DNA from: Candidatus Omnitrophota bacterium | GTDB taxonomy: Bacteria; Omnitrophota; Gorgyraeia; Gorgyraeales; Gorgyraeaceae | Length of the DNA stretch: 64,000 nucleotides | Reading direction: 5' to 3' | NCBI GenBank assembly: GCA_043814965.1 | Contig: JBDRJN010000003.1 | Location: 136,677 to 200,676, forward strand | Part shown: positions 22,902 to 39,687 of the stretch, piece after piece | How positions within the stretch are numbered: position 1 is the first letter of the stretch | Layout: each line of letters starts with the position of its first letter | The notes under the pieces: generated by a model | Told to the model about the DNA's origin: nothing | The model's input: the letters and a program-made list of their open reading frames with translations, nothing else | Database searches by the model: none | Position numbers and translations under genes: made by a program

Positions 22902-23427
22902 TTAACACTACCTTCTTGATCCGATCTCTTATAAAAAGTGGTATCAATATTCTCCATAGATATATAAAAAGATTAATAAGCCTGGTCTTTGTTAAAAAAA
23001 AGATCAGAAAACGCGTTCTCCTGTTGCCAAAAAAAATATTCTTATTATTTCTTTCTATTTTTTCTACAAATGCCAGCATATCTTCTTTTTTAATTATGCC
23101 ATCTATCCATAACATACTATCGCCTTTTAAGACATAACAGTCTCTTTTTCTTCCTATTATTCTATGAACAGTAAGCCGCCTTGTAACAGGATGTATAAAA
23201 GCAGCCATATCTCCAAGACAAAAATCACCTTTGTCGTTTAATCGACAAAGTGTTATTGTATCCCCATCCATAATAAAAGGTGACATACTAAACCCCTTTG
23301 CCTTAAACCTAAATCCAGCGTTTTTGTTTAACGTTACTTTGAGTAACTCTATAAAAGCTGAGCTGTCAAAAACGATGTCCTGTCCTTCTTTTATAAAATA
23401 ACTAGCTTTATTTCTTTCGATTTTCAA
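22894..23427 (-). CDS. S26-family signal peptidase-like protein, probably ER/SipW-type S26B (candidate leader peptidase)
   Basis: GFSMSPFIMDGD (Ser box) and TVHRIIGRKRD (His in place of the box-D Lys, as in S26B). 177 aa. Translationally coupled within the operon. Confidence 0.5.
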   Translation of the reverse strand: MKIERNKASYFIKEGQDIVFDSSAFIELLKVTLNKNAGFRFKAKGFSMSPFIMDGDTITLCRLNDKGDFCLGDMAAFIHPVTRRLTVHRIIGRKRDCYVLKGDSMLWIDGIIKKEDMLAFVEKIERNNKNIFFGNRRTRFLIFFLTKTRLINLFIYLWRILIPLFIRDRIKKVVLNG

Positions 23428-23758
23428 TCACCATCTTTCTTTTTAAAAGCTCATTCGTCAATCCTAGCACATCTTCCTTGATCTCGTCTTTCCCTCCCTC
23501 AAACTTTTCAGCTAGCCGTCCTATGACTTCTTCAAGTGTACTCTTGCCATCAAGCTCATTCCATATGGCCCTACCAGTCTCATTCAGAGTAAATATCTCG
23601 TCCTCCATATCCCCTACTCCGGAAGTTATAGGGATTATTATAAATTCCCCTTGTATTTCGCGAGCCACCACAGCTTCCGATATCTTATAAGTTTTTTTAA
23701 TATCAAGCGCTGTTTTCATAAATCGTCTCCTTTTTTTAAAAAACCTTTTTATTGACAA
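23408..23758 (-). CDS. PqqD-family peptide chaperone (stand-alone RiPP recognition element)
   Basis: 116 aa. VVAREIQGEFIIIPI...FTLNETGRAIWNELDGKSTLEEVIGRLAEKFEG follows the PqqD pattern. Confidence 0.7.
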   Translation of the reverse strand: MSIKRFFKKRRRFMKTALDIKKTYKISEAVVAREIQGEFIIIPITSGVGDMEDEIFTLNETGRAIWNELDGKSTLEEVIGRLAEKFEGGKDEIKEDVLGLTNELLKRKMVIENRKK

Positions 23759-24935
23759 ACCTATCTATTCTTTTTTTCCAATCTTTAACTTCCCATGCAT
23801 TTTCGCTTTTTCCTATAAGACCTAGAAATCTAGCCTGAACATGGGCAATTTTACACAAGTATTCTACAGGAGTATCTAGAGTTCCATGCTCTGACCAGGA
23901 CTTCCCAGGACATTGTTCACATAGGCCTTTTAAAAAACACCTGGCACACCGAGACAGATATTCTGGATCTTTAGCTTTTATCTTTCTTATTTTTGGAAAA
24001 AAATTAATGACAGCATCTCTTAGGGAGCCTTTTTTGAGATCATAAACTAAGTCGGGATGCCTCACCAGCATACAAGGCTGAAAATTGCCATAACTATCCA
24101 CGCAACCGCTATCTTTTCCTGATCCGCAAGAAAAGATATACTCACCTGAAGGATGCATGAACTTTGAACAAAATTCCTGCATACTTTTGATATGGTTTTT
24201 TTGCTTTCCTTTGGAAATATCCAAACTTTCTTTAGGTACAACTCTAAGTTTTTTTATGATATCATTCTTTTTAGTATCATCTCTGCGAGACCTCAGGTCA
24301 AAAGATGCTGAATATGATGGCTTTTTTTTGTCCATCCATGGAATAGTACTAGTCCATTTTTCAAATTCTTCCATGTCTTTTTTATTGGTAGGTAAAAGCG
24401 TTCCTTTAACAATAAAAGGAATATTGTGTTTCAATAATAGGTCTATTCCCCTCTTAAAATCCTTAAAAGACCCTTTGATCCGTGTACAAGCTTCATAAGA
24501 AGACTCTTTCATACCATAGACGCTTACTTCTATTTTTTTTAATGGCGGAATATCATTAAAGAGCTCTGCTAAATGAGGGGTGATCAAGGTAGCATTTGTA
24601 AATAAGATGACCTTTAGCCCTAACTTTCTTGCGTATACATAAAGCTCTTCAAAATCCTCTCTTAAAAGCGGCTCCCCTCCTGTAAATCTTACAACCATAC
24701 AACCAAGCTCAACTGCTTCTTTTAATATGGTCTTTATCTTATCTGTCGAGAGCTCTCTTTTTTTAGCATCTCTGTCATCGATGGGTAGATTTATATAGCA
24801 ATGTATACAATTGCTATTACACCTTTCCGTAATTTCAATGTCAAGATGAGGCAGGGGAGAAGTTTTTATTCTCCAATAAAAATCCTTACCTATTATCTTC
24901 TTAGTAGCATAAGAAATATTCTTTTTCATTATCAC
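23736..24935 (-). CDS. Radical SAM/SPASM-domain peptide-modifying enzyme (paralog B, PqqE-like)
   Basis: CNSNCIHCYINLP and GGEPLLREDF. Closely similar to paralog A over the first 120 aa or so. C-terminal SPASM cysteines (CARCFLKGLCEQCPG...YLCKIAHV). Confidence 0.8.
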   Translation of the reverse strand: MIMKKNISYATKKIIGKDFYWRIKTSPLPHLDIEITERCNSNCIHCYINLPIDDRDAKKRELSTDKIKTILKEAVELGCMVVRFTGGEPLLREDFEELYVYARKLGLKVILFTNATLITPHLAELFNDIPPLKKIEVSVYGMKESSYEACTRIKGSFKDFKRGIDLLLKHNIPFIVKGTLLPTNKKDMEEFEKWTSTIPWMDKKKPSYSASFDLRSRRDDTKKNDIIKKLRVVPKESLDISKGKQKNHIKSMQEFCSKFMHPSGEYIFSCGSGKDSGCVDSYGNFQPCMLVRHPDLVYDLKKGSLRDAVINFFPKIRKIKAKDPEYLSRCARCFLKGLCEQCPGKSWSEHGTLDTPVEYLCKIAHVQARFLGLIGKSENAWEVKDWKKRIDRFVNKKVF

Positions 24936-24950
24936 TGTATATCAGCTGAA

Positions 24951-26918
24951 CTATATATCTTGTAATATGTTCAATATATTTCCGCTTTTGTCAAAATAAA
25001 GATTATAAAATGTACCTTCATCGGCCATTTTTTCGATAAACTGGAGGGATTTTTCCCACCACTCTACCGTAACGAATGGCTTTATTAAACGCGGAAGAAG
25101 CTTTCTGGTTATTTCTCTTTTATCATTGATCAATTCTATCTTATTTTCCTTTGATTTATTCAGAAAAAATACCCCTTTTAGTAGAGCCGAAGCATTAGAG
25201 ACTTCAGGTATCTCACCATGGCTCCATGTACCATACATCTTAAACCCTTCAGGCTGCTTCCTAACGATAATTCTATCATCGCAGAGTATTTTTGAGCTGC
25301 CTTTTAGCATTTTTATCATTGTGGATTTACCAGCTCCTGACACACCAACAAAAAGCAACCCCTTCCCTTCGAGTTCAACGCCACTTGCGTGCAAGACACA
25401 GCCCTCTCTATCTGCCAATAATCTTGCTAAAAATATTTGATCTGTTGGGAGAAGGCTGAGGGTTTGTAAACCTCCTTTAGAAAAATGCTTTCCTATGTTA
25501 CTATACACACTAATGCTGGTATGCTCATTATTGAATACTACTATCTTATGGATCTTTTTTTCTATATTATCCGGCAATATCCCCATATATATCCAGGAAA
25601 GGCCTTTCTTATATATTGCCCAAGGGAGTCTTTTATAATATAGCTCCCCTAAATCCTTTTCCTTAAGATCAGGTAATTTAAAATGATGTCTTATCTTAAC
25701 GATATCTTTCCCTGGTTTATTTACTTCAAATTGCTTAAACTTAGCGCTAAATGTCTTATTATTTATAGGCATATCTGAGTCTACTCGTATTGTTACATCT
25801 GCGATATTAAAATAGCGCCTGTTATTTTTCTTCCAATCTTCTTTAAGCTTCCTATTTTCTTTTGCCATATCACACAGATAGTCGATCTTTTTGCTAAATT
25901 TACGGTGCTCAAGATAACTATACACAGGACAGATAAGGCAATTGCTTTTCAAATCACACTTGCCGCAATTCCTTAAATAATCTTTCGTAACCTTTATCTT
26001 ATCTGCCAAAGATGGGATAAGCTCTTCCCAGACTTTTTTAAAACTGCTTTTTTTTAAACTATACCTAAGGCCAGGTTCTTTGACAAACGAGCAAAAACTC
26101 ATCCCACCATAAGGATCTATATGAAATTCTCTTCTATTCTTTATGCACGAAGAAAAAAGGTGTGTCTCTGGTTTTGGACAAAGACCAGTATTTCTATTAT
26201 CCTCGGTAGATAAATCTATTGTATCAAGCCTTGCTGCCTCTTTCGGCGAAAGACGCTGGTAAATTATCTCTTTATTGACTTTTTCATCACCGCTTGCTGA
26301 TAAAAAAAGCCAGGCTGCTCCTATCCTATAGTGTTTACTCAAAGACCGGGCCAATAGTTTCATTTTCTCAAATTCATGGTAATTATCTCTCATAGGGACA
26401 AGCTGTATCATAAAACCAGCTCTTGCCTCTTTTAGATATCTAATGCCTTGCATGGTAGCCTCAAAAGAACCTGGATTTCTCGTAATATGATCATGCACTT
26501 TGGCTGTAGCGCCATAAAGCGCTATCATCTTTGCTCCGATCCTTTTAAAAAGTCCTGCGATCTTTTTTGTAATAAGTGACCCATTAGTATTAATACTATA
26601 TGATCTTGAATTAGAGGTTATATAATCGAATATCTCTAAAAAATCAGGCCTTAGTATTGGTTCACCGCCTGATATAGACCATTTGTGACAACCCATAGTC
26701 TTTGCATCATCTACTATTTTTTTTATATCTTCCAAGGAAAGTTCATGTCTTTTGTCTTTAGAATCAGGCGATATCCTAAGCCAGCAATGTCTGCAATTAT
26801 TATTACAACGGTATGTCAAGTCAATAATCCCTTCAAAAGGAAGTCTCGGCATATTAAATGACCTTTTCATTAAAACATATCTATCCTGATGTCTATTAGA
26901 TTTTATAAGATTACTCAT
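24951..26918 (-). CDS. Fusion protein: N-terminal radical SAM/SPASM enzyme plus a C-terminal HPr-kinase-like P-loop domain
   Basis: CNNNCRHCW and GGEPIL. SPASM region CGKCDLKSNCLICP...YLCDMAKE. The C-terminal roughly 280 aa carry VLHASGVELEGKGLLFVGVSGAGKST...ILCDDRIIV, matching the HprK C-domain Walker A and LxxDD pattern. Confidence 0.75.
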   Translation of the reverse strand: MSNLIKSNRHQDRYVLMKRSFNMPRLPFEGIIDLTYRCNNNCRHCWLRISPDSKDKRHELSLEDIKKIVDDAKTMGCHKWSISGGEPILRPDFLEIFDYITSNSRSYSINTNGSLITKKIAGLFKRIGAKMIALYGATAKVHDHITRNPGSFEATMQGIRYLKEARAGFMIQLVPMRDNYHEFEKMKLLARSLSKHYRIGAAWLFLSASGDEKVNKEIIYQRLSPKEAARLDTIDLSTEDNRNTGLCPKPETHLFSSCIKNRREFHIDPYGGMSFCSFVKEPGLRYSLKKSSFKKVWEELIPSLADKIKVTKDYLRNCGKCDLKSNCLICPVYSYLEHRKFSKKIDYLCDMAKENRKLKEDWKKNNRRYFNIADVTIRVDSDMPINNKTFSAKFKQFEVNKPGKDIVKIRHHFKLPDLKEKDLGELYYKRLPWAIYKKGLSWIYMGILPDNIEKKIHKIVVFNNEHTSISVYSNIGKHFSKGGLQTLSLLPTDQIFLARLLADREGCVLHASGVELEGKGLLFVGVSGAGKSTMIKMLKGSSKILCDDRIIVRKQPEGFKMYGTWSHGEIPEVSNASALLKGVFFLNKSKENKIELINDKREITRKLLPRLIKPFVTVEWWEKSLQFIEKMADEGTFYNLYFDKSGNILNILQDI

Positions 26919-27050: not shown

Positions 27051-27254
27051 TCAAGACTGATCAAGATTATAACAAACTGCGCATTCTCGCGGCCATGAAA
27101 TCGCAGTAAAAGACTGACAGCCGCCAAATACTGAGCCTGCATAGATATAATATGTCTCATCCTTCTTACAGATCGTCAAGACATTTTCACCCTTGGCTTT
27201 TACCATTACGACCAGATTTGGTTTTTTCCACTTGTTTCTTGGTTTCTTCACCAT
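27051..27254 (-). CDS. Candidate RiPP precursor peptide (67 aa) with a PqqA-like leader (KWKKP...), a Cys-containing core and a C-terminal Ser
   Basis: First gene of the operon. RBS AGAGGGA sits 6 nt before the ATG. Leader MVKKPRNKWKKPNLVVMVKAKGENVLTICKKDET is shared with a paralog at 33999-34223. Core ends ...RECAVCYNLDQS. Confidence 0.55.
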   Translation of the reverse strand: MVKKPRNKWKKPNLVVMVKAKGENVLTICKKDETYYIYAGSVFGGCQSFTAISWPRECAVCYNLDQS

Positions 27255-27410: not shown

Positions 27411-28403
27411 ATGGAAAAGAATAAAAAAAGCATACTTTTACTCTGCAAAATAGATTTGACTGGATCTGAAAAAAAAGAGATATCTATATCATTTAACACA
27501 GAAGGCTTCTGGGCTGATTTGGACAAATTCGCCGAGATTAACCGCGTGTACCCTCTAATATATTCTCAACTTAAAAAAATAGACTCTGACCTTATTATCC
27601 CTGAAAAAATGACAAAAATTTATCTTTATAGCTTAAAAATAAATACTTTATTAAAAAAAGAATTTTTATCCGTGCGAGATAAGCTATTGGAAAACAAAAT
27701 ACCTGTGATCCCTCTGAAAGGAATAGACCTAGAAGATAGGATATATAAAAACATTGGCGCAAGAAATATGGTAGATATCGATATATTAGTCAAAAAGGAG
27801 GATTCGGAAAAAGCAAAAACAGTGCTCAAAAGTCTGTCTTACAGCGCTTATCCAAAAATATCACCAGAATCTCAAATAATACTATCGAAAAAGATGTCTC
27901 CCAGTGTTATCTCTAACATAGACCTTCACTGGGAGATTTTTCCTCCCAGGCCATACAAGATCAGCTTGCCTGGCATATGGACCTCTGACAAACTAAGGCT
28001 TGAAGATGCGGTCATTGTTACGACACTTCATATTAGACGCCATATTAGACAAGCTACTTTTAAAGATTTTTGCGATGTCCTCAATATCTTAGAACAAAAA
28101 GAATCTAATATTGACTATTCGTACCTTAAAAAAATTGCTAAAAAAAATCATATCAAAAACTGCCTTAGCTTCTCTATCTTCGCTATCAATAACATATTCG
28201 GGACTGACTTACCTCAACTTTTTAAGATAAGCTCTTTTAGAAAAAAAATATTACTTTACCTTTTCCCTCAAGACATATTTTTCAAAGAAACAAAAAATAA
28301 AGTCAAGCTATCCATTTTAAGGATTTTTCTATTCGATTCGATCATAGACATCATTGTTTACATTGTCAGGGTCAGTTTATTCGAAAGAAGATTCAAGATA
28401 TGA
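27411..28403 (+). CDS. Nucleotidyltransferase-family protein (uncharacterised NTase family resembling those beside HPr-kinase-like genes in lasso-peptide clusters)
   Basis: N-terminus ILLLCKIDLTGSEKKEI...FWADLDKFAEINRVYPLIYSQL and LKGIDLEDRIY...DIDILV match that family pattern as recalled. Divergent from the precursor gene. Confidence 0.5.
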   Translation: MEKNKKSILLLCKIDLTGSEKKEISISFNTEGFWADLDKFAEINRVYPLIYSQLKKIDSDLIIPEKMTKIYLYSLKINTLLKKEFLSVRDKLLENKIPVIPLKGIDLEDRIYKNIGARNMVDIDILVKKEDSEKAKTVLKSLSYSAYPKISPESQIILSKKMSPSVISNIDLHWEIFPPRPYKISLPGIWTSDKLRLEDAVIVTTLHIRRHIRQATFKDFCDVLNILEQKESNIDYSYLKKIAKKNHIKNCLSFSIFAINNIFGTDLPQLFKISSFRKKILLYLFPQDIFFKETKNKVKLSILRIFLFDSIIDIIVYIVRVSLFERRFKI

Positions 28404-29515
28404 TAATCTCCCATATTGGTTCAAGAGGTATCCCTGCTGTGTATAGTGGGGTCGAAAACGCCATAGAAGAACTTTCAAAACGCCTAGTAGAGCAAGGTAT
28501 TGATATAACTGTATACTGCCATTCAAAAAAAATAAAAACATCCTATTACAGCTTTACAAAACTGATAGAACTTCCTACTATACATACAAAACACCTTGCA
28601 ACCATTGTCCATTCCCTTATATCGACTATTCATGTAATATTTACAGATACTGACATAGTACATTACCATGGGATCGGCTCGTCAATCTTTTCATTTATCC
28701 CTCGCATATTTGGCAAAAAAACTATTGTGACCGTACACGCCCTGGACTGGAAAAGAAAAAAATGGAATAAACTCGTACAATTTTTATTAAAACTGTGTGA
28801 GATAAGCGCCTTATATTTCCCAAACAAAACAATAGTAGTGTCAAAGCATCTAAAAAATTATTTTAAAAATAAGTATAATAAAGAAACTTATTTCATTCCC
28901 AATGGTGTAAATATACAAAAAGGTCTCCAGGATACCCCATCAGAAGACTATATACTCTTTGTTGGACGACTAGTACCAGAGAAGGGTATACAATATTTAA
29001 TAAGGGCATTTAACGATATAAATACCGATAAAGAACTTTGGATAGCAGGCCAAGCTAGTTATACTGATTGGTATTTCAGGGAATTAAAAAAAATCTCTCA
29101 AAAAAATATAAGGTTTTTAGGGCCTATTTATGGGGAAAAACTGTCTGCTTTATACAATAATGCCTATATATTCGTATTGCCTTCTGAAATAGAGGGCTGC
29201 CCTATAGCGCTTTTGGAAGCAATGTCACACAAAAAATGCTGCCTAATAAGTAATATACCTGAATGTGTAGAAATAGGCTCTGATTGCACCATGACTTTTG
29301 AAAATAAAGATCATGCTGATCTAAAGAAAAAACTAGAATTGCTTCTAAATGACCCTCAGTTGGTATATGACTTAGGTAAAAAGGCTTGGGGGAAAATAAA
29401 GATAGATTACGACTGGGGTAATATAGTCCTAACATTAAAAAACATCTATCTTTCGCTAGATGAAATCTCTCTATCAAAAGATATTATTAGACCGATGACT
29501 AACCAAAATAAATAA
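28400..29515 (+). CDS. GT4 (group 1) glycosyltransferase
   Basis: 371 aa with a GT-B fold pattern and the E-x7-E region (SEIEGCPIALLEAMSHKKCC). 4-bp overlap with the NTase gene. Confidence 0.7.
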   Translation: MIISHIGSRGIPAVYSGVENAIEELSKRLVEQGIDITVYCHSKKIKTSYYSFTKLIELPTIHTKHLATIVHSLISTIHVIFTDTDIVHYHGIGSSIFSFIPRIFGKKTIVTVHALDWKRKKWNKLVQFLLKLCEISALYFPNKTIVVSKHLKNYFKNKYNKETYFIPNGVNIQKGLQDTPSEDYILFVGRLVPEKGIQYLIRAFNDINTDKELWIAGQASYTDWYFRELKKISQKNIRFLGPIYGEKLSALYNNAYIFVLPSEIEGCPIALLEAMSHKKCCLISNIPECVEIGSDCTMTFENKDHADLKKKLELLLNDPQLVYDLGKKAWGKIKIDYDWGNIVLTLKNIYLSLDEISLSKDIIRPMTNQNK

Positions 29516-30699
29516 AAAGAAGTTTTCCATAAGAATGCATCAAATGTATTCACGTTGAATAACATAGCTGTAAAACCTATCAAAACAACTGAAAACATCT
29601 CTTTTCTATATCCTTCTGATTTCTTGTAGCACAAAAAAGACCTTTTTATAATGCTCTCCAGAAATATTATAAAACCTACAGAACCTATCACCCCTGTCTC
29701 CGCCAAATGCATAAGATAGACACTATCAGGTATCATAAGTTCATGTGGAAGTCTTAGGCTTGAGTATTCGTTAAAAACCAACCTGAAGTTATTAAGCCCT
29801 ATGCCTACGAAAGGGTGGTGTCTTAACATGTTCCATGTAACAAGATACGCGCCAGTCCTATGCCCTGTGCTCAAATAGCTCCATAACCTTTGTATGCTGA
29901 ACCTATGTGTAAACTCTGAGATAACATATAACCTGAGTGAACAAAAAATAATAAACAAAATCCCTAAACACAGAACAAAAATTACAGTTTTAAATCTCTT
30001 CTTTAAGATCAGTAAAATCAAAAATGTCAGAAATCCTGCCAGATAGGTGCCTCTTGAAAAAGTAAAGACCATTGCGGAAAATATAACTAAAAATACTGTG
30101 AAATTAAAATTCTTTAGCGTTTTTCTCTTCTCACTTTTATAAAAATAATACGCTAACGGCAAGCAAGTTATAAGGTAAGACCCCAATATGTTAGGGTGTG
30201 CCAATGTCGACATCATGCGTTTTTCTTCTATTAAATACCTATGATAAAAATAGTTACTTATATATCTTTCGTATATTATATTGCGTTCGAACAGCATCTC
30301 TAAGAAACCAAAAAATGCTACTAGTCCAGCACATATACATAAAACATATAAGACGCTCTTTACATTTTTAGAATTAATTTCGTTTCTAGCCAAATAATAT
30401 ATCGGGATTGCGCTAAGGACAAAATCTCTATAATAAACATAGGAAGATAGTTTATTTTGAGAAAAGTATATGTTTATAGAAAAAAGAAAAAGATATACCC
30501 AGAAAAATTTACCATTATCAAGAAAATATTCTTTAAAATCATGCCTTTTTTTAAAGAAACTGACTAAAAACAAAATCCATAATATTATATTAAATACATT
30601 ATTATACTGAAATTTTATTGGGTCTGGGACAAAAGATATCCAAATGATAAATAGGATCATAAAAAAAAGAACTATTCTTTCACTAGATATTTTCGACAT
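29446..30699 (-). CDS. O-antigen ligase / Wzy_C-domain polytopic membrane protein (paralog 1)
   Basis: 417 aa, 10 or more TM helices, and a periplasmic loop with H-x-x-L-x-x-L-x-E-x-G-x-x-G (HLAETGVIGSVGF). Confidence 0.6.
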   Translation of the reverse strand: MSKISSERIVLFFMILFIIWISFVPDPIKFQYNNVFNIILWILFLVSFFKKRHDFKEYFLDNGKFFWVYLFLFSINIYFSQNKLSSYVYYRDFVLSAIPIYYLARNEINSKNVKSVLYVLCICAGLVAFFGFLEMLFERNIIYERYISNYFYHRYLIEEKRMMSTLAHPNILGSYLITCLPLAYYFYKSEKRKTLKNFNFTVFLVIFSAMVFTFSRGTYLAGFLTFLILLILKKRFKTVIFVLCLGILFIIFCSLRLYVISEFTHRFSIQRLWSYLSTGHRTGAYLVTWNMLRHHPFVGIGLNNFRLVFNEYSSLRLPHELMIPDSVYLMHLAETGVIGSVGFIIFLESIIKRSFLCYKKSEGYRKEMFSVVLIGFTAMLFNVNTFDAFLWKTSFYLFWLVIGLIISFDREISSSER

Positions 30700-31927
30700 T
30701 CTCTTCTCTTCCAGTCAATGACATTATAATGCCGCAATAAAACCAGAACATAAAATATGGAGTCCTCCAGTACAGTGAATCATACGTCATCATAGTTACT
30801 AATATCGCTACCATCCCTCCCAATGCAATAGAAATAACCTCTTTATACTTAGAAGACATTCTTATCATCGGTAAAGCCCTTGAAATAATCAGAAACAAAA
30901 AACCAATAAAAGACAATAATCCTAAAACACCACTTTCACAAAGCATCATAAGAAACATATTTTCCGGAGTTTTCCTGTATTCATTATGCTCCTTGGGCTC
31001 TTTATCATATTTATTGAATACAATCTTATAATTACCCAATCCAACACCCCAAATAATGTTATGTCTAGCAATAGTCCCAGCAATCTCAAATCTAGTAATT
31101 CTATACTTATGATACTCCTTATTAAAAAATCCGTATCTACCTATGCTGATCCTTTGCTTATTGATATCTTTACTTGATGAAAACACTAATAGTAAGCTAA
31201 ATATAAATAAGAGAAAAATCAGGGCTATCTTTTTATTTTTAAATACTAGATATATAAAAGTTGCGGCGGTAAAAGCGCAGATCGCAACTCGCTCTAGAGA
31301 TAAAAAAGCTCCTACGAGAATAAATAACCAACAAAAAATACCTATTAGAATCAATGATTTTTTATTTGCATTGAAAGCTAGAAAACAAGCAAAAGGTGAA
31401 CTCGCAGCTAAGTAAGTCCCAAAAACTTGAGGAACGTATTGGGTAGACATTACCCTACCTTGAGAAAGATAATAGATATAATACTGATTTTTAATAAAAA
31501 TCTCGTATATTAAATTTCTATGGAATATATGCTCCAGTATCCCAATAAAACCAACTATAGCTCCTAATATGCATATAGTTAAAGCTACCTCGTTTTTATT
31601 TTTAAATAAATAAATGTTACTTTTAAAGAAAAAATAGACTACTAATGCTGGGATCGCATAATCGTAGTATTTATTTATGGCTATATCTCTATTCTGCGCA
31701 AAGTTCAATCCTATTGTTAATATAAATATATAACTCCATAAAAATAGATCATTTTTATCAATAAACAGTCTCTTAATATTAATCTTATCTAAAAAAATAA
31801 TGCTTATAAAACCAAAAAAAAGAATTATAACTATATATTTAGGTTGTATCAGGCTAGAAAAAAATGATATCCATATAAAAAATAGTATAAAAATAACAAG
31901 AAATATAGTTTCGGATATCTTTTTCAT
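30683..31927 (-). CDS. O-antigen ligase / Wzy_C-domain polytopic membrane protein (paralog 2)
   Basis: 414 aa. ARHNIIWGVGLGNY...MLCESGVLGLLSF. Confidence 0.6.
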   Translation of the reverse strand: MKKISETIFLVIFILFFIWISFFSSLIQPKYIVIILFFGFISIIFLDKINIKRLFIDKNDLFLWSYIFILTIGLNFAQNRDIAINKYYDYAIPALVVYFFFKSNIYLFKNKNEVALTICILGAIVGFIGILEHIFHRNLIYEIFIKNQYYIYYLSQGRVMSTQYVPQVFGTYLAASSPFACFLAFNANKKSLILIGIFCWLFILVGAFLSLERVAICAFTAATFIYLVFKNKKIALIFLLFIFSLLLVFSSSKDINKQRISIGRYGFFNKEYHKYRITRFEIAGTIARHNIIWGVGLGNYKIVFNKYDKEPKEHNEYRKTPENMFLMMLCESGVLGLLSFIGFLFLIISRALPMIRMSSKYKEVISIALGGMVAILVTMMTYDSLYWRTPYFMFWFYCGIIMSLTGREENVENI

Positions 31928-32115
31928 ATTAAATTATAAAGTTAGAATAATAAAAATCTGGCAGTCACTGCTGCTGATCTTTTCTGTTCTCTAACGCTTT
32001 TTTTATCAACAGTATACTTCAGATTTAGATTTATAAAATCCATGTAATCCTCCATGGATAACCATTTGGAAGGAATATCTTTAGATTTAGTGACAGGCAA
32101 GTTTAATTTTTCCAT

Positions 32116-32658
32116 CTATGCTTTCTCCAGTATCTTGTTGTAAAGCTCTTCTGTACCATATGTAAGGCATATGTCTTTGAACTCGGTATCTTTGACATCG
32201 ATTTTATTGACATTGATCAATTGAATGATATCCGGCATGTCCCTATATTCTCGAATAGACGGGTTATACTTTATCGCGTGTAGTTTCAGTGCGATCAGAT
32301 GACTTAGGCTTGGTACGATAAACTTTTGTTTTGCGATAGAGATCTTTTTCCCATCTTTAATGATCTTATCCAACGTATCCTTATCTACAAACATAAAATC
32401 TGTATCCATTAGATAGGGCTCATCTCCTAAAAGCCTCGTGAATACTTCATGCTCATAGTCTTTCTTAAATCCTTTTTTTATCAATATATCCGATATTTTC
32501 TCAAAATCCTCTTTAGTGATCAAAAAATCTATATCTGCTGTCTGCCGGCTTACCTTATAGTAATTCACCGCAAAACCACCTATCAAAACACAATTCACTT
32601 TGCTCTTAGAAAATATATCCGAAAAAAGATGGAAAATACTAGGGTATTGTCTGGCCAT
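32116..32658 (-). CDS. Small nucleotidyltransferase-fold protein (Pol-beta superfamily, putative)
   Basis: LIGGFAVNYYKVSRQTADIDFLI resembles the G-[GS]/D-x-D minimal NTase motif. 180 aa. Confidence 0.35.
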   Translation of the reverse strand: MARQYPSIFHLFSDIFSKSKVNCVLIGGFAVNYYKVSRQTADIDFLITKEDFEKISDILIKKGFKKDYEHEVFTRLLGDEPYLMDTDFMFVDKDTLDKIIKDGKKISIAKQKFIVPSLSHLIALKLHAIKYNPSIREYRDMPDIIQLINVNKIDVKDTEFKDICLTYGTEELYNKILEKA

Positions 32659-32781
32659 TTCTTATCTATCGATTCTCCTTTATATTATATTGTACCATAA
32701 AATTAAAAATACGGTATAAATGTTTGATAAATTTACTATTGTAATTACCAAAAATAGTGCTATTATTAGACTAATCATACC

Positions 32782-34068
32782 ATGCAAAAATTAAACTCAA
32801 AACCCATATCGCCTATTATACTTTCAATACTTGCTTTCTTTATCTTTATCCGGCCCTTCTTCTCTGGTCTTGTCTATCCCCTTCTAGAGTTATACTATGA
32901 AGTCGCTTTAATTATGCTAGGATTCATAACTCTTTTTATCTATAGGAAATATGAATTCAAGAGTCCTTTTGTGATGCCTATAGCTATTATGCTTTTGTCT
33001 TATCTTATATCGCATATATTTTCAGTAAATTTTGAAAATTCTACAAAAGAGATCATTAGGTTTATTAGCTATATAATGATATTTTCTATGGTGGGGTTGT
33101 CAAATCGGTCTCAAAAAGACACCCTTATAAAGATCATGGTATTTTCAGCCTCTATTGTAAGCATCTATGCAATATACCAATACTTTTGGGGATATGACAT
33201 CCTTCTAAATGGCTTAAACTCTACTCAGAATTTTCTAGTCTCCAATTCTTCATACGCCAAAGATATCCTTATAGGGAAACGAGCTATAAGCACCTTTCCC
33301 TCTCCTAACATATTAGGAGGATATCTAATAATGATGTTCTTTCTGGCTTTATATCTATCAAAAAGATATAAAATAGCTTTAATAGCCGTGATCCTTATAT
33401 CCTTTGCGCTTCTTTTAACAAAATCAATGGGCGCATGGCTCAGCCTTATAGTTGCATTAATTATTTATGTGGTAGTTGGCTATAAAACATTAAGATTTGA
33501 AAAAAGAATCGCTATTATCTCTTCCATCTTCATAGTATTAGCCCTAATATTTATCCTACTAAGTCGTGGGGAAAGATTAATAAACCTTGAAAACCCGCAA
33601 AATTCCATCACCCAACGCATAGCATACTGGAAAACTGCTATCAATATCATAAAGTATCATCCAATATTCGGGGTCGGTCCTGGAAATTTTCAGGAAGTCT
33701 TTTTAAAATATAAAATCGGATCAGATACAGATACTAGATACGCTCATAATCTATTTTTGCAGATTTGGGTCGAGCTTGGGATTCTAGGCTTAATAGGTCT
33801 AATATATCTATTATCTATGATTGTAAAAAATTTAAGGACAAAACTTCAAAATAACCTAATACTATTTGTCAGCATTGTCTTCATGATGCATAATATAATA
33901 GATATAACTTATTTTATCCCTCAGGTATCTTTTTTTTGGTGGGTAATCTTAGGTATACTATTAAGAGTGACTACGGAATCACTGAATAGATCTTTGCCTT
34001 ATGATGGGCCAAGTTCTGAACAAAAGTTACAGACTTCATCTGGCGCAGGGCCTCCGACACGGATATAA
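32782..34068 (+). CDS. O-antigen ligase family protein (paralog 3)
   Basis: 428 aa. YAHNLFLQIWVELGILGLIGL is the Wzy_C signature. Its C-terminal tail overlaps the precursor paralog antisense by about 70 bp. Confidence 0.6.
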   Translation: MQKLNSKPISPIILSILAFFIFIRPFFSGLVYPLLELYYEVALIMLGFITLFIYRKYEFKSPFVMPIAIMLLSYLISHIFSVNFENSTKEIIRFISYIMIFSMVGLSNRSQKDTLIKIMVFSASIVSIYAIYQYFWGYDILLNGLNSTQNFLVSNSSYAKDILIGKRAISTFPSPNILGGYLIMMFFLALYLSKRYKIALIAVILISFALLLTKSMGAWLSLIVALIIYVVVGYKTLRFEKRIAIISSIFIVLALIFILLSRGERLINLENPQNSITQRIAYWKTAINIIKYHPIFGVGPGNFQEVFLKYKIGSDTDTRYAHNLFLQIWVELGILGLIGLIYLLSMIVKNLRTKLQNNLILFVSIVFMMHNIIDITYFIPQVSFFWWVILGILLRVTTESLNRSLPYDGPSSEQKLQTSSGAGPPTRI

Positions 34069-34223
34069 CATGAAAAATGTAAAAAATTAGGTCCATATTT
34101 AGCATACTCTCTCGGCACCGTATCGTCATCGGTACTGCAAAAAGCAAGCACTGCTTCTTGCTTATCACCTCTTATTAAAACAATAAGCTCCGGCCTATCC
34201 CATTTAAGTTTCTTTTTTGCCAC
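33999..34223 (-). CDS. Second candidate RiPP precursor peptide (74 aa), paralog of 27051-27254; GTG start
   Basis: Strong RBS GGGGAGG 6 nt before the GTG. Leader MAKKKLKWDRPELIVLIRGDKQEAVLAFCSTDDDT aligns with the first precursor. Divergent Cys-containing core ending ...EVCNFCSELGPS, also with a C-terminal Ser. Confidence 0.5.
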   Translation of the reverse strand: MAKKKLKWDRPELIVLIRGDKQEAVLAFCSTDDDTVPREYAKYGPNFLHFSCYIRVGGPAPDEVCNFCSELGPS

Positions 34224-34280
34224 CTCAAACCTCCCCAGGAATGATTGTATTACTTATATCCAATAAGATAAGTATATACC

Positions 34281-35576
34281 TTATAAGATTTTTGTCAATA
34301 CTTTCGAGTCTATAGTTTCTTGACGTTTAACCAATAAACTATAGATCTTCTCTATTTCCACTGCATCCTCTTTGATATCTTTTACAGTAGTTACTGCGGG
34401 ATTATGCTCGTTTAGCTTATCCGAATTATCAATAAAGAACTTTATCTTGTTATAAAGCTCTTCTACATTGCCTCGTTCAAATAAAAAAAAGCTATCTTTT
34501 ATAAGTTCAGACACTCCCCCTACTTTACTAGCTAAGATAGGTGTATTTGATAATATCGCTTCATGCAATATCAAAGGTGAGTTTTCTTCCCACATGGATG
34601 GAAATATTAAAACATCTATATCTTTAAATACTTTCGCTATATCCTTATTGTCAAAGCTTCCCATAAAATAAATATTTTTATTACCTCTTACAATTCTCTT
34701 TATTTTTTTATAATAACTAAATATTCCATTGTTCACAGGAGGTTTTCCATAAATTTTAAGCATTACATTACTCTCTTCTATCTTATTAAAAGCCTTTATT
34801 GCTACATGAACTCCTTTGGTAGGTATAAGAGTACCTATAAAGCCAAATCTTACTTTATCTGATAAAGTTTTTTTAATATCCTTGAATAAATCAGCGTTCA
34901 TTCCATAATCCGAATATCTGATTTTCCCCTGCGGCATACCCAACTCTATAAATCTATTCCTTAAAAACTTTGAAGGCGCTATAAATAAATCGACCTTATC
35001 GAAAACTTCACTAAGTTCAACATTATATCTTTTGGAAATTTTTCTAGGGATACTAAACGTGAATATTTTTCTGCTAATGTTACTCGGACTCATACCAGAT
35101 ATTAAGCAATATAAACAATTAGAATTAACTGGATCACTGCATAGTCTCGAATTAGGCTTTAATAATTGACCCCTAGGACACATAAGCCAATAATCGTGCA
35201 GAGTAAAAACTATAGGTATATTGCGTTCTTTGATTATATCTATAATGCCTAGCGATAAGAACAATAGATGGTGTATATGAACTATATCTGGCTTAACCTC
35301 ATCTAGGACTTTAATAAAAATATCTTCAATGTTTTTATTTTTATATATATTTTCAAGCGTAGTATATCTATTAAGGATATTGTTTACTTTATAGACGCTT
35401 AACCCGTCGTAATTCCCTTTGACCAATTCATAGTTTTTTCTTGATCTATCGTTAATCCTATAAAAAATACTTATGTCATGAGATTTTGACAGTTCTTTTG
35501 AGAGGTTATACGCATATATTTCAGAACCAGACATGCTCTCAGGAGGAAAACAATGGATTATGTTAAGCATTTTCAT
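34281..35576 (-). CDS. GT4 glycosyltransferase
   Basis: 431 aa. EENSPLILHEAILSNTPILASKVGGVSELI is the GT4 EX7E region. Confidence 0.7.
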   Translation of the reverse strand: MKMLNIIHCFPPESMSGSEIYAYNLSKELSKSHDISIFYRINDRSRKNYELVKGNYDGLSVYKVNNILNRYTTLENIYKNKNIEDIFIKVLDEVKPDIVHIHHLLFLSLGIIDIIKERNIPIVFTLHDYWLMCPRGQLLKPNSRLCSDPVNSNCLYCLISGMSPSNISRKIFTFSIPRKISKRYNVELSEVFDKVDLFIAPSKFLRNRFIELGMPQGKIRYSDYGMNADLFKDIKKTLSDKVRFGFIGTLIPTKGVHVAIKAFNKIEESNVMLKIYGKPPVNNGIFSYYKKIKRIVRGNKNIYFMGSFDNKDIAKVFKDIDVLIFPSMWEENSPLILHEAILSNTPILASKVGGVSELIKDSFFLFERGNVEELYNKIKFFIDNSDKLNEHNPAVTTVKDIKEDAVEIEKIYSLLVKRQETIDSKVLTKIL

Positions 35577-35582
35577 AAAAAG

Positions 35583-37160
35583 TTAGATATTGGTTAGAAA
35601 GCCGTCTTTTGCACAATTATAGCAATGTTCAAAACGCCCCTCTTCCACAAAAGTCTCTCTCATTTTTTGATAAACCTCTCCATTCCAGATGCTTTCAAAA
35701 CTAGCTATCTCTATATTTCCTGCTATTGGTGGTTCAGGTGCGCAGCAAGGTAATATCGTTCCTTTATTATTTATAAAGACTTGATCCCATAAGAATGGAC
35801 ATTGTTTTAATTTTTTGCTACATGAAAGACTCTCCGCATCTATCTTAGGCTGGACGTCATCTTTAAATTGTCCAATATTTATATGATTGGGATATAGATA
35901 CTTATGATAAAAAGGTGCTGAGTGAAAAGTAATATCTAGTTCTTTAGCCAGTTTTATTGCCTTTTTTAAATATAGAACAACCTCTTCCGTGTTATCATCT
36001 AATGACTCTTCTTTCATGCCATCAAAATGCATAACTATTCTAGGGGCAACTAAAACATCAACTCCAATTTTTTTGGCAAACTCAACCATTTGAGGTAATT
36101 CTTTAAAATTCCTTTTCATTAATACCATGACTAAAACAAAATAAGGCCTATTGTTTTCTGGTAACTGGTATTTGTATTTTTGAAATAGGCCAATATTTTC
36201 TATAACCTCTGAGTAATTTGCTCCTATTCTAATACTTTCATAAGTCTCTTTGATTGGCGAATCAAAAGATAATGTAAATTTTTTAGTACACTGCGTTAAT
36301 CTCTTAAGGCGACCCTTTTTCGCATTTAGCAATGTACCATTAGTTATAAGATCAAGTCTAACCTTGTATCTATCAGCTAATTCCAACTCTAAGTCAAATG
36401 TTCGTGACATTAATGGTTCACCCGCTGTGTTTAATCTCAAAACTTGCGCCGTTGGAAAAACCTCCTCTGCGAATTTAATCAGGCTCCTCTCGTTAATTCC
36501 TTTCGACATAAGCATATTTAAATCACTGTCATTTACTGTCCTCTGTATACACATACGACACCTTAGATTGCATAAATAATCTGTTGCCAAAGATGGCACT
36601 ATAGGAAACGATCGCAATATAGACCTTTTCTCAGCTATATCTTGTTGCAAGAGTATGTGGTTTTGATGTTTTAATCTTTTAAGAAGGGCTTCCGACATGC
36701 TACTCTTTTCAAAAAAACAACACCACCATGATCCATCTTTTTTATAAAAACTATCCAATCTTATATCGTGAAGCCGTATGCCTAAATCTCTAATGTCAGA
36801 GTTGTTCAACATTATCCTTGGAGACCATAATTCTGAAACTTCCAGCCTAACATTTGACGTTCCTTCTGGAACATTTATAGTACTTATGTTTTCTGAAAGC
36901 TGATAAATACTGTTAAATTGTTTTGTTTCATCAAAGAGAGATAATTCTATTTTCTTTCCTTTCACTGGACAACCGGAAAGATCGATACTTACTCCCTTAT
37001 GATTTTCTGGAAATTTTAAAAAAGCTACTTTTTTAGACCATACCCAAATAGAAGCAACATCTGATTCAATGTCGTACCAGCCTTCGCCTAACATATCTTT
37101 TAAATAACCAGGCTCGAATAAACCTTTATCGCCATTTTTATTTTTCATTTGGATCTCCAT
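35583..37160 (-). CDS. Radical SAM/SPASM-domain protein with a roughly 170-aa N-terminal extension
   Basis: CNLRCRMC CX3CX2C motif. C-terminal CPFLWDQVFINNKGTILPCCAPEPP is a SPASM/twitch-type Cys cluster. 525 aa. Confidence 0.65.
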   Translation of the reverse strand: MEIQMKNKNGDKGLFEPGYLKDMLGEGWYDIESDVASIWVWSKKVAFLKFPENHKGVSIDLSGCPVKGKKIELSLFDETKQFNSIYQLSENISTINVPEGTSNVRLEVSELWSPRIMLNNSDIRDLGIRLHDIRLDSFYKKDGSWWCCFFEKSSMSEALLKRLKHQNHILLQQDIAEKRSILRSFPIVPSLATDYLCNLRCRMCIQRTVNDSDLNMLMSKGINERSLIKFAEEVFPTAQVLRLNTAGEPLMSRTFDLELELADRYKVRLDLITNGTLLNAKKGRLKRLTQCTKKFTLSFDSPIKETYESIRIGANYSEVIENIGLFQKYKYQLPENNRPYFVLVMVLMKRNFKELPQMVEFAKKIGVDVLVAPRIVMHFDGMKEESLDDNTEEVVLYLKKAIKLAKELDITFHSAPFYHKYLYPNHINIGQFKDDVQPKIDAESLSCSKKLKQCPFLWDQVFINNKGTILPCCAPEPPIAGNIEIASFESIWNGEVYQKMRETFVEEGRFEHCYNCAKDGFLTNI

Positions 37161-38638
37161 TTAAATATAAATTTCAAAATAGATAAAAAAGGCCAGATAA
37201 TAGGTCTTATAAAAAATCTATAACTTTCTGAATGATATACACACTCTAACTCTTTGGTTAATAAATCAATTTTCTGATCCTTTAAATTTATATCTTTCTC
37301 TAAATCTGAAGCCTTTAACTGCCATTGAGACTTTGAATTTAAATCATTTTCTTTTTGATTCTCATGTGAATTATTAATATTATTCGTTAATTTTTTAAAA
37401 GGGATTTCTCTTAAGAGGTTATTTTTAATTTCGAGAGAGTCTAATTTTCTATTCAAAACCTTGCTCAGGCAATCCTTATCCTTTTTTTTTGCTCTTAATA
37501 TTTCATGATAAGTTGCTACTGCTTTTGTAAAATTTAAATGCTTTTCAGAGTACTCGATAAAAGCATTTTTCTTTTTGTCGTAATATTCTTTTATAAAGTA
37601 CTTTTTTAGAATTTTAGTTAGTTCATCTTTCATATTAACAAGAGGCACTTTATCAACAAAGCCCGGTAATTCGCTGTACCAACCCGTTTTACTCACAATG
37701 ACAGGTATTGCCCGTTGAATAGCTCGCATTACTACCCCAGAGGTCTCTCCCATAGTTGGATTTCTTAAGGACACAACAACATCTGACTGCGCTAAAAGTT
37801 CCTCAAATTTTTCTAAATCTACTCTGCCAAAAATATAAACTTTCTTAGAAATACCTAGCCTATTGACTAGTTTATAAATATCTACGCAATCGCAACCCAC
37901 TTGCCCCGCTATATACAGCTCAAGTTCAAAGCCTTCTTTTAATAACTGAGCGCAGGACATAATAATCATATCTACATGTCTATTTTTCTCTACTCCGCCA
38001 AAAACGCCTATCCTAAATGTCTTTTTTTTATTATCATGTAAGGTTTTTATTATGTTTTGGTTGTAAAATAAATGGTCTATACGATGAGTTTCTATATAAG
38101 GAAAAACATTTCTAATTCTCTTTTTAACATACTCTGAATGCACAATACATGAATCAGCGTGTTGAAGCACTTCTTCAAACATTGGAATGTGCGTTACAAT
38201 ATCTTCATATAAAAAAGTATTATCTAATTTTATCAATTTTTGAAATAACAATGAGATTGTTTTACCATACCACTTATCAACGGAAGAACTTAACTCAAGC
38301 AAGTTAGACTTTTTATGTGCTATCATCATATGAAGAAGTACCATGTCATGAAGATGCACTACTCCTCCATGTTTTTTAAGTAAGTCGATTATGTATCCAT
38401 GATATTCAATATTATTTCCTATATGATAAACTATAAGATCATAATCGTCTCTACTATTGATTGCTGTCTCGTTGATATTAAAAACATTTACTCTATCTAG
38501 TTTCTTAGGGGTTTGACAATTAGAATACACTTCTATCTGGATATCAAATTTCGACAAACCTTTTATCAAATCATATACATAATCAGATATACCGCTTTTC
38601 TGTGGCGGCCATGGGGTAACAAAAGCTATTTTTTTCAT
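37145..38638 (-). CDS. GT4 glycosyltransferase with a C-terminal coiled-coil and a conserved RPIIWP tail
   Basis: 497 aa. GT-B core followed by a Lys/Glu-rich coiled-coil and ...SESYRFFIRPIIWPFLSILKFIFKWRSK. Confidence 0.65.
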   Translation of the reverse strand: MKKIAFVTPWPPQKSGISDYVYDLIKGLSKFDIQIEVYSNCQTPKKLDRVNVFNINETAINSRDDYDLIVYHIGNNIEYHGYIIDLLKKHGGVVHLHDMVLLHMMIAHKKSNLLELSSSVDKWYGKTISLLFQKLIKLDNTFLYEDIVTHIPMFEEVLQHADSCIVHSEYVKKRIRNVFPYIETHRIDHLFYNQNIIKTLHDNKKKTFRIGVFGGVEKNRHVDMIIMSCAQLLKEGFELELYIAGQVGCDCVDIYKLVNRLGISKKVYIFGRVDLEKFEELLAQSDVVVSLRNPTMGETSGVVMRAIQRAIPVIVSKTGWYSELPGFVDKVPLVNMKDELTKILKKYFIKEYYDKKKNAFIEYSEKHLNFTKAVATYHEILRAKKKDKDCLSKVLNRKLDSLEIKNNLLREIPFKKLTNNINNSHENQKENDLNSKSQWQLKASDLEKDINLKDQKIDLLTKELECVYHSESYRFFIRPIIWPFLSILKFIFKWRSK

Positions 38639-39687
38639 AAATTATCTAAGACCAACCTTTTTATTATATTATCCCAAGTAATATTTTTAGCTAACTCATA
38701 TCCCCGCATACTGATATTTTCTAATTCTTTATCGTTCATATCGTAGACCTTATTAATATTTTTTGCAATCTCTTCAGGATCACTATTAGACAAAAAGCCT
38801 GCGCCTGTTTCTTCAATGAATGTCCTTATCTCTCCGCTATCAATACAGCTTATGACAGGTTTTTTTGCTAAAAACGCCTCTATTGTAATAAACCCGTAAT
38901 CCTCGTCTAATGGCGCATAGAATACCGCCCTTGCTTTTGAAAGGCGGGATATAAGCTCTTCGTCTTTCAAAAATCCAAGAATTTCACATCTATCAAAAAG
39001 ATCATAATCATTGATCAGGCCTTGTAAGCTCTTCGAGTAATCTTCAGGACCTGCCCCGATAATAGAAATTTTTGCTTTTTTTACATATTTAATGGCTTTT
39101 ATCAATAAATCTGGTCTTTTAAGTTCGTTTAATCTGCCTATATAAAGAATTCTATCGTCATATGGTCCTGGCAAAATCCTGTCAGCAAGCCTGGGCGGCG
39201 GAAATAAAGGCGTACTATCGATCTCGCAAAACCTGCTTAATCTATTGGTGACATTTCTTGATATAGTAAATCTAGGACTGCACTCATATATAAATTTCTT
39301 ATCAAGGGCCCTGATTTCGTTCCTCAATATATAAGCATCTTTTGAAGATCTCATGAAATCAAATTCTGTGTTTTCTAAATCATAAAAGATCCTATGCTGA
39401 TGAAACAACCACAATACTTTTTTACTATGTTCCACAGCATATGTAGGGAATTTTGTTCCAATTATAAGGTCTATTGCTTTACCATCAGATCCTGACAAAT
39501 CCAATAATCTCCACGAAATAACATTATTTAAAATTTCTTCTTCTGGATACCATTTAAAAGGAACCTGCACTAATTCTGCCTGAATACCCTCTAACTGATT
39601 TATCTCGTTAACAAGGCTTTGATTTAAAAATTCAGCACCACCTTGAACAAATGGCACTTGTGCCCCTAAAACAATTACTTTTTTCAT
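38635..39687 (-). CDS. GT4 glycosyltransferase
   Basis: 350 aa with a GT-B C-domain (RLNELKRPDLLIKA...GFITIEAFLAKKPVI). Confidence 0.65.
   Translation of the reverse strand: MKKVIVLGAQVPFVQGGAEFLNQSLVNEINQLEGIQAELVQVPFKWYPEEEILNNVISWRLLDLSGSDGKAIDLIIGTKFPTYAVEHSKKVLWLFHQHRIFYDLENTEFDFMRSSKDAYILRNEIRALDKKFIYECSPRFTISRNVTNRLSRFCEIDSTPLFPPPRLADRILPGPYDDRILYIGRLNELKRPDLLIKAIKYVKKAKISIIGAGPEDYSKSLQGLINDYDLFDRCEILGFLKDEELISRLSKARAVFYAPLDEDYGFITIEAFLAKKPVISCIDSGEIRTFIEETGAGFLSNSDPEEIAKNINKVYDMNDKELENISMRGYELAKNITWDNIIKRLVLDNL

Follow-up and report, generated by a model that had tools for sequence, protein, structure and literature searches.

The stretch of Candidatus Omnitrophota DNA considered here (64,000 nucleotides (nt) of contig JBDRJN010000003.1, hereafter the window) contains on its minus strand, at 33999..34223, an open reading frame (ORF) of 74 codons that begins with GTG and ends with TAA (34001..33999); its product, MAKKKLKWDRPELIVLIRGDKQEAVLAFCSTDDDTVPREYAKYGPNFLHFSCYIRVGGPAPDEVCNFCSELGPS, will be referred to as peptide 2 and is the putative precursor of a RiPP (a peptide made on the ribosome and modified after translation), a related candidate precursor, peptide 1, being encoded elsewhere in the window. 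Residues ~1–30 of peptide 2 make up its leader (KW-D-R-P-E-L-I-V-L-I-R-G...E-A-V-L-A-F-C-S), and the core contains C52, the pair C65-x2-C68 and the C-terminal Ser74. A preliminary description of this DNA had credited the 74-aa ORF with a strong ribosome-binding site followed by GTG, and this signal is indeed present: the Shine–Dalgarno (SD) sequence GGGGAGG, read directly from the DNA at 34236..34230 of the minus strand, is located 6 nt before the GTG (34223..34221).

Further upstream, at 34298..34271 of the same strand, there is a sigma-70-like promoter match (TTGACA-16 nt-TATACT) that agrees with the consensus at 11 of 12 positions and lies ~48 nt 5′ of the GTG, the call being a consensus match alone and the sigma-70 consensus possibly not being that of Omnitrophota. 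The −35 hexamer of this site falls within the final codons of a gene for a GT4 glycosyltransferase (34281..35576), which is read from the same strand and whose stop is separated by 57 nt from the GTG of peptide 2; that peptide 2 could represent a read-through extension of this same-frame gene is ruled out by the two in-frame stops that intervene. When scored with the codon usage of the long genes of the window, the peptide 2 frame is the best of the six (0.245 bits/codon vs ≤ −0.046), the peptide 1 frame being likewise at the top of its own six; furthermore, both precursor genes have a G+C content of ~41%, compared to 30–33% in the flanking genes and 37% in the whole window. The surroundings had been characterized by GT4 and O-antigen-ligase-like genes, which is correct but incomplete, the gene of a 525-aa protein with radical S-adenosylmethionine (SAM) and SPASM domains (35583..37160) being also found, with the GT4 gene, directly upstream on the same strand.

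At its 3′ end the peptide 2 gene overlaps a convergent gene (32782..34068, plus strand) that encodes a Wzy_C/O-antigen-ligase-like membrane protein (Pfam Wzy_C, E 1.6e-29); the antisense overlap, estimated at the outset as about 70 bp, is exactly 70 nt long (33999..34068) out of the 225 nt of the peptide gene. Read on the peptide strand, these bases encode C52, C65 and C68, i.e., three of the four family-conserved cysteines, and Ser74; on the opposite strand they are the last 23 codons of the Wzy_C gene, and an alignment of the three Wzy_C paralogs of the window with two homologues from a related locus (L011, see below) identifies them as a tail of ~20 extra residues, the other four proteins stopping 8–13 residues past the final transmembrane helix. 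Because this tail is non-conserved, the overlap is not counted against peptide 2; as far as the aligned sequences tell, the best account of it is that the ligase ORF continues until it meets a first stop, and the overlap does not constitute evidence against the peptide gene. Inside the overlap the codon score is 0.14 in the peptide frame and −0.15 in the ligase frame, which, over 22 codons only, is weak evidence.

Peptide 1 (67 aa; 27051..27254, minus strand) is identified as a precursor by both its BLASTP match to peptide 2 and the family profile described below. The kinship of the two leaders, proposed in the preliminary description together with a pairwise alignment as a check, is borne out by that alignment, in which 14 of 34 leader residues are identical with an E of 7e-7 (for a single comparison), so that the reservation that the similarity might not be significant does not hold. 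In a six-frame scan of the window the motif KW.[KR]P.[LIV] occurs in these two ORFs only, and the same two are the only ones that terminate with C-x2-C-x5-S-stop, the ending of the different Cys-containing core that had been ascribed to peptide 2; motif scan and hidden Markov model (HMM) search give exactly two precursor copies in the window. The leaders of the two peptides are only 41% identical, and that of peptide 2 (RGDKQE) is nearer to the RGDRQE-type peptides of other organisms (P0123, P0125, P0133 and P0140) than to peptide 1, so that the two copies do not stem from a recent duplication.

The family to which these peptides belong was delineated using as an anchor the 655-aa radical SAM/SPASM–ScmC fusion protein encoded in the window. 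A scan of species-representative genomes for this protein yielded 80 loci, in which precursors were sought first by motif and then by running a local HMM over every small ORF (E<1e-8). In this way 108 further family peptides were recovered, making 110 members with the two of the window; of the 80 loci anchored on the fusion, 65 contain precursors and, with the window included, 66 of 81 sources hold at least one. An HMM of the family from which the window peptides had been left out gives peptide 2 a score of 47.6 bits (E 3e-14 over the 445 small window ORFs, of 25–150 aa, that were scored) and peptide 1 a score of 46.6 bits, the next-best window ORF reaching 5.4 bits, and on this ground the original view of the ORF as a second precursor paralog with a different core can be maintained. 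Judged by these profiles, peptide 2 truly belongs to a large family of precursors whose genes are linked to that of the radical SAM/SPASM–ScmC fusion.

The family is characterized by the leader M-(K)n-W-x-K-P-x-L-I-V-L-x-R-G-x-P-E-E-x-V-L-x-x-C-K, followed by a hypervariable core. The first Cys is at W+21 in 87 of 109 members, four Cys are present in 79 of 109, the last two are spaced as C-x2-C in 57 and as C-x3-C in 36 (93/109 together) and six residues follow the last Cys in 81 of 109; the final residue is Ser in 104 and Thr in 6 of the 110 members, with no exception. Peptide 2, having its Cys at W+21, +44, +57 and +60, six residues past the last of them and Ser74 as terminal residue, follows the family pattern and displays every hallmark of it but the Lys next to the first Cys (CK). 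Multiple copies are found in 22 of the 66 precursor-containing sources, which have 2–10 precursors each, and this is the pattern of several precursors per maturase set that had been invoked for the window. The distance between precursor and fusion gene has a median of 1.4 kb and a maximum of 9.2 kb (within the ±10 kb fetched); for 28 of the 108 precursors it exceeds 3 kb, and 12 are on the opposite strand. Neither several copies nor such distances are exceptional in the family, and the 7.1 kb of peptide 2 falls within this range. A contig of a metagenome-assembled genome (MAG) labelled Dehalococcoidia (L018, 11586..19221, plus strand) has ten or more precursor genes arranged in tandem or nearly so, with near-identical leaders (MKK.W.KPELVVLVRN.PEE) and diverse cores, an arrangement resembling a combinatorial library.

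When peptide 2 was compared by phmmer with 1.84 billion representative proteins, in an exhaustive search, 17 called peptides of 59–76 aa emerged (E<1e-3), all ending with S or T. P0126 aligns with peptide 2 over its full length, core included (GPN..CY...GP.P..VC..CS.L..S), with a pairwise E of 4e-15, and lies on a 938-nt contig whose context is uninformative. Two of the nearest leader relatives have an informative neighbourhood: P0123 opens a tandem row of four small genes (66–71 aa) directly upstream of a fusion gene and P0138 is located 2.5 kb downstream of a fusion gene, past two toxin–antitoxin pairs. The top matches of the exhaustive search, P0121 and P0122, were dismissed as spurious; these two and P0136 are long tandem-repeat proteins that match peptide 2 via repeated short stretches, likely artefacts of repeat scoring. 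From a word index of 5.8 billion proteins peptide 2 retrieved no candidate, no Pfam or NCBIfam model was found to match the precursors, and a search of the literature found no paper describing this precursor family or system.

The anchor protein, which serves as the family marker, is encoded at 24951..26918 (minus strand) and consists of a radical SAM/SPASM maturase (Pfam Radical_SAM) fused to a C-terminal ScmC/HPr-kinase-like P-loop domain (Hpr_kinase_C, E 8e-4). The same strand encodes a second radical SAM(/SPASM) enzyme (23736..24935), found as a separate gene in at least 69 of the 80 loci, a PqqD-family RiPP recognition element (RRE; 23408..23758; Pfam PqqD, E 1.5e-15; 64/80 loci) that matches the NCBIfam models lasso_PqqD_Bac (E 1e-6) and ScmD (E 6e-6), both below their cut-offs, an S24/S26 (signal-peptidase-I-like) peptidase that is a candidate leader peptidase (22894..23427; Peptidase_S24, E 2e-5; signal peptidase I, E 8e-5; 50/80 loci), a third radical SAM/SPASM enzyme (21771..22901; a separate gene in at least 59/80 loci) and an ABC exporter with fused membrane and ATPase domains (18532..20307; homologue in 20/80 loci). 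The conserved core was defined by tblastn of the window proteins against the 80 loci: the fusion enzyme is present in all 80 and the three radical SAM enzymes are found as separate genes in 56, the rest being mostly short contigs. It is by this maturase set, at 21.7–27 kb of the window, that peptide 2 would most plausibly be serviced.

Of the candidates scored, more than 1,600 are homologues of the fusion enzyme at E≤1e-5, with identities of ~55–63%, and the 80 loci are distributed over Omnitrophota, Aminicenantes, Thermodesulfobacteriota and other former Deltaproteobacteria, Chlorobiaceae, Victivallales, Acidobacteriota and Methanomicrobiales archaea. In five archaeal loci, from Methanomicrobiales, Methanoregula and Methanolinea MAGs (L032, L040, L041, L051 and L062), the fusion enzyme (51–54% identity) is accompanied by precursors; if the binning is right, the system would cross the boundary between bacteria and archaea. 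Inside the RiPP cluster of the window, the third radical SAM gene is separated from the ABC exporter gene by two minus-strand genes, for an AbiEi antitoxin-like protein (21070..21687) and an AbiEii toxin-like nucleotidyltransferase (20304..21077), neither of which has a homologue in the 80 related loci; in another locus (L084) two pairs of the NTP_transf_2/HEPN type lie between the fusion gene and the precursors.

The C-terminal domain of the fusion enzyme is matched by the NCBIfam models ScmC (E 1e-10), HprK-related kinase B (HprK_rel_B; E 3.7e-10), HPr(Ser) kinase (E 1.9e-6) and HprK-related kinase A (E 7e-4), and Pfam PF27840 (ScmC) is recorded on P0001, which is 100% identical to the fusion protein of the window, and on all the homologues listed. 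Sequence/profile comparison of this kinase domain with HPrK/P in PDB gives E values of 0.0016–0.0035, and a Foldseek search of PDB with an AlphaFold (AF2) model gives E values from 8e-7 to 1e-4, the matches including PEPCK (E 8e-7) and the HPrK/P structures 1ko7 (E 7e-6) and 1kkl (E 3e-5). H510, K531, D547 and D548 are invariant both in 30 homologues and in a further alignment, and the DDR of the fusion aligns with the ADDRV of HPrK. A His-Lys-Asp-Asp motif is conserved and essential in lasso-peptide kinases (PMC9266682), which act on the linear precursor, phosphorylating its strictly conserved C-terminal Ser on the side chain (PMC9266682, PMC6993621); in the case of pseudomycoidin, the nucleotidyltransferase-like PsmN adds one or two hexoses to that phosphate (PMC6993621), and the affinity of PqqD-like B1 proteins for lasso leaders, which they deliver to the enzymes, is nanomolar (PMC5067487). 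The invariant terminal Ser/Thr, the universal HPrK-like domain and the PqqD protein, joined in a subset of loci by an NTP_transf_5 protein, together point to a lasso-type tailoring logic operating on a radical SAM scaffold and, by analogy, the terminal Ser/Thr is probably conserved so that the fused kinase can phosphorylate the last residue. The four conserved Cys and the three radical SAM/SPASM enzymes suggest thioether-type crosslinks, this being the least certain step.

The following pathway can be envisaged. Transcription of the peptide 2 gene would start from its own promoter-like site or result from read-through from the upstream GT4 gene, and translation would start from the GTG behind the strong SD sequence; the leader (W-x-R-P-x-L-I-V-L) would then be bound in trans by the PqqD protein (23408..23758) and the three radical SAM enzymes would modify the Cys core, crosslinks of the thioether type being the likeliest chemistry. 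The kinase domain of the fusion would phosphorylate the side chain of Ser74, as PadeK, ThcoK and PsmK do on lasso precursors and, in this Omnitrophota sub-lineage, the NTP_transf_5, GT4 and possibly Wzy_C proteins may extend the phosphate with one or more sugars; finally, the S24/S26-like peptidase would cut off the leader and the ABC transporter would export the product. In our judgement, peptide 2 is likely to work as the second precursor of a RiPP cluster that spans ~18.5–34.3 kb of the window.

Several observations weigh against this reading. The gene lies 7.1 kb from the fusion maturase gene (a separation from the maturases of ~7 kb had been noticed from the start), its 3′ end meets the convergent transcription of the Wzy_C gene and no intrinsic terminator was found 3′ of it; the residue that follows the first Cys is Ser, as opposed to the Lys present in 93 of 109 members, and, counted from W, the core has 67 residues, more than in most members (mode 56); furthermore, no orthologue of peptide 2 was found in the collections searched (a metagenome scan; a narrower alignment gave three short loci). 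As to the enzyme, all NCBIfam matches of the C-terminal domain of the fusion are below the curated cut-offs and the AlphaFold model is of medium confidence, with a mean predicted local distance difference test score (pLDDT) of 64 and values of 80–93 in the kinase core.

The CS in place of CK, the unusual length of the core, the distance from the fusion gene and the overlap with a convergent gene are also what one would expect if peptide 2 were a decaying or silent duplicate, homologous but no longer expressed or processed. Exact-sequence look-ups, in which peptide 2 proved not to be on record, favor the same explanation, but they gave the same outcome for peptide 1 and for the record of the fusion protein (P0001). 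On the other hand, the ORF is intact and preceded by a strong SD sequence and a promoter-like site, all the other hallmarks are kept, down to the precise spacing of the Cys and the Ser at the terminus, the codon score is the best of the six frames, the leader scores like that of peptide 1, and CS is found in three other family members. A silent duplicate is accordingly regarded as an unlikely explanation of the locus.

More improbable still is the possibility that peptide 2 is modified not by the maturase set at 21.7–27 kb but by the upstream GT4 (34281..35576) and the 525-aa radical SAM/SPASM protein (35583..37160), which would form with it a small RiPP module of their own. The 57 nt between the GT4 stop and the GTG, the common strand, and the Radical_SAM and SPASM domains of the 525-aa protein with their weak matches to peptide maturases speak for such a module, but in the 80 loci with their 108 precursors the 525-aa protein has a single match (23% identity, at 4 kb from a fusion gene), as does the GT4 (26%). 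In addition, the leader of peptide 2 is the PqqD-type leader of the family and no second PqqD gene is found nearby, the two in-frame stops and the promoter-like site intervene between the GT4 gene and peptide 2, and the nearest leader relatives adjoin ScmC fusion genes. Having no conserved counterpart near any other precursor, the GT4 and the 525-aa protein were rejected as a maturase set proper to peptide 2. The 525-aa protein has an unassigned N-terminal extension of ~190 residues and its gene (minus strand) is located among GT4 genes (34281..39687); its best matches are models of tungsten-cofactor and metalloenzyme maturases, far below cut-off, and it is probably part of an adjoining glycan locus, as is the GT4 encoded upstream of peptide 2. 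As to the view that the ORF is fortuitous, lying antisense to the ligase gene's end and resembling peptide 1 by coincidence only, small ORFs of 25–150 aa are plentiful in the window, but the E of 3e-14 on a profile devoid of window sequences, the two motifs shared by only two ORFs in six frames, the limitation of the overlap to 70 of 225 nt, the family hallmarks and the core alignment with P0126 leave this explanation virtually no credit, and we count it as already refuted.

To return to the reading of peptide 2 as a functional second precursor, the genes that separate it from peptide 1 require comment, since they had led the preliminary description to consider it an orphan inside a polysaccharide locus. 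They encode an NTP_transf_5 (PF14907) nucleotidyltransferase-fold protein (27411..28403, plus strand; Pfam E 3.4e-34; 17/80 loci), which by analogy with PsmN would be a candidate tailoring enzyme acting on phospho-Ser; a GT4 glycosyltransferase of the DUF1972 type (28400..29515, plus strand), whose gene overlaps the former by 4 nt and which has a 43.6% identical homologue in the RiPP operon of L011; two Wzy_C-like membrane proteins (29446..30699 and 30683..31927, both minus strand), the former having homologues that adjoin core genes in L005, L006, L011, L020 and L024 and the latter being assigned by domain search and comparison with the 80 loci; a short (180 aa) nucleotidyltransferase-fold protein of the AbiEii/NTP_transf_5-like type (32116..32658, minus strand), whose membership in the system is uncertain and which has no homologue in the 80 loci; and the Wzy_C protein already described. 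The three Wzy_C paralogs (29446..34068, 4.6 kb) are diverged, with 21–26% mutual identity, and one of them matches the model of an exosortase-A-associated putative O-glycosylation ligase (TIGR03097) with an E of 6e-15, below cut-off.

Wzy_C genes are found near core genes in 5 of the 80 loci (L005, L006, L011, L020 and L024), all of Omnitrophota, and all five also carry NTP_transf_5, which is present in 17 of the 80 (hypergeometric p ~2.6e-4, uncorrected for shared ancestry). In L011 the genes are ordered on one strand as NTP_transf_5–Wzy_C–Wzy_C–GT4–ABC exporter–precursor–fusion–radical SAM–PqqD–S24–radical SAM and the cluster is bordered by housekeeping genes, PhoU/PHO4 on one side and a gene with a tRNA-binding domain on the other; the window holds the same accessory set between its two precursors, rearranged and with the addition of one more Wzy_C and of the short nucleotidyltransferase. 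The intervening gene types thus lie within the RiPP operon in L011 and next to core genes in the other four loci, so that the image of an orphan in a polysaccharide locus has to be abandoned: because NTP_transf_5, GT4 and Wzy_C accompany the core genes in other Omnitrophota loci, peptide 2 can be placed at the far edge of an extended RiPP cluster. By gene content, this cluster is one that covers ~18.5–34.3 kb of the window, includes the polysaccharide-like genes and has two predicted substrates.

Whether the product is also joined to a glycan is a different matter. The earlier suggestion that the modified peptide is glycosylated or ligated to a surface glycan is favored by the gene linkage and by the experimentally demonstrated lasso precedent (PMC6993621), but this support, though real, is indirect and the suggestion plausible but unproven; furthermore, that Wzy_C and GT4 were not found in most of the 80 loci counts against a glycan link. 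We entertain as a tentative and rather doubtful proposal that, in this Omnitrophota sub-lineage, the phospho-Ser would be the handle for a glycan built or ligated by NTP_transf_5, GT4 and a WaaL/PglL-like Wzy_C protein, the precursors being substrates of an ScmC-type cassette and the product a peptide–glycan conjugate of which peptide 2 would provide one of the two substrates.

Among curated systems, the closest is the SynChlorMet (SCM) cassette, itself experimentally uncharacterised, which comprises ScmC (TIGR04249), the PqqD-like ScmD (TIGR04248) and the radical SAM/SPASM proteins ScmE and ScmF (TIGR04250/04251). The system of the window shares with it an ScmC/HPr-kinase-like protein, a PqqD-like chaperone and several PqqE-like radical SAM/SPASM enzymes, and Syntrophorhabdales, Chlorobiaceae and Methanomicrobiales, which recall the name of the cassette, are all represented in the 80 loci. 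The scores, however, are far from the SynChlorMet cut-offs (ScmC 41.5 vs 125, ScmD 26.4 vs 100, ScmE 67 vs 400, ScmF 89 vs 400) and, unlike in the cassette, the ScmC domain of the window is joined to a radical SAM enzyme, the radical SAM genes number three and the core includes an S24/S26-like peptidase. To our knowledge, no precursor has been assigned to the SCM cassette.

A second likeness is with the kinase-tailored lasso peptides (paeninodin with PadeK, ThcoK, SyanK, and pseudomycoidin with PsmK and PsmN), which have in common with the present system a kinase of the HprK superfamily (here a predicted one) with H-K-D-D residues, a conserved C-terminal Ser (the phosphorylation site in the lasso precursors) and a PqqD-like RRE. 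The leader motif of the family, W-x-K-P-x-L, may also resemble the Y-x-x-P-x-L of lasso leaders. Some lasso clusters possess a nucleotidyltransferase-fold enzyme that adds hexose to the phosphate (PMC6993621), and the window and 17 of the 80 loci have NTP_transf_5, whose likeness to PsmN would be one of function. Unlike in lasso systems, no gene between 17.4 and 39.7 kb encodes a lasso cyclase (Asn-synthase-like) or a B2 transglutaminase-like peptidase, the scaffold enzymes are radical SAM/SPASM proteins, to one of which the kinase is fused, and the cores have four conserved Cys.

The Cys-containing cores, the PqqD/RRE-dependent radical SAM/SPASM maturases, the multiple precursors and the ABC exporter are reminiscent of ranthipeptides and sactipeptides (PapB, AlbA, StsB, RumMC), whereas the scores of the window proteins are below the respective cut-offs (PapB 62–64 bits vs 340, AlbA 50–63 vs 850, StsB 57–89 vs 625) and the known members of these classes have neither a kinase domain nor an obligatory C-terminal Ser. 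Finally, the three Wzy_C-domain membrane proteins from between the precursors resemble Wzy_C ligases and O-oligosaccharyltransferases (WaaL, PglL, TfpO/TfpM), but with scores under the cut-offs (TfpM 19 vs 600, RfaL 26 vs 277) and a distribution limited to 5 of the 80 loci and the window. Enzymes of the TfpO type glycosylate the C-terminal Ser of pilin.

What emerges from these comparisons is a predicted type of RiPP that would combine radical SAM maturation with C-terminal tailoring of the HPrK type, its family being large and apparently unstudied; a paper of November 2025 gives a list of example phosphorylated bacterial natural products that contains no radical SAM system (PMC12639078). With the present analysis a very common enzyme set is given a defined precursor family, whose size and neglect, together with the prediction concerning the terminal Ser, are the main source of interest. 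Indeed, the association of a terminal Ser/Thr with a fused HPr-kinase-like domain suggests that the logic of C-terminal phosphorylation and glycosylation seen in a few lasso peptides is far more widespread, operating on a radical SAM scaffold.

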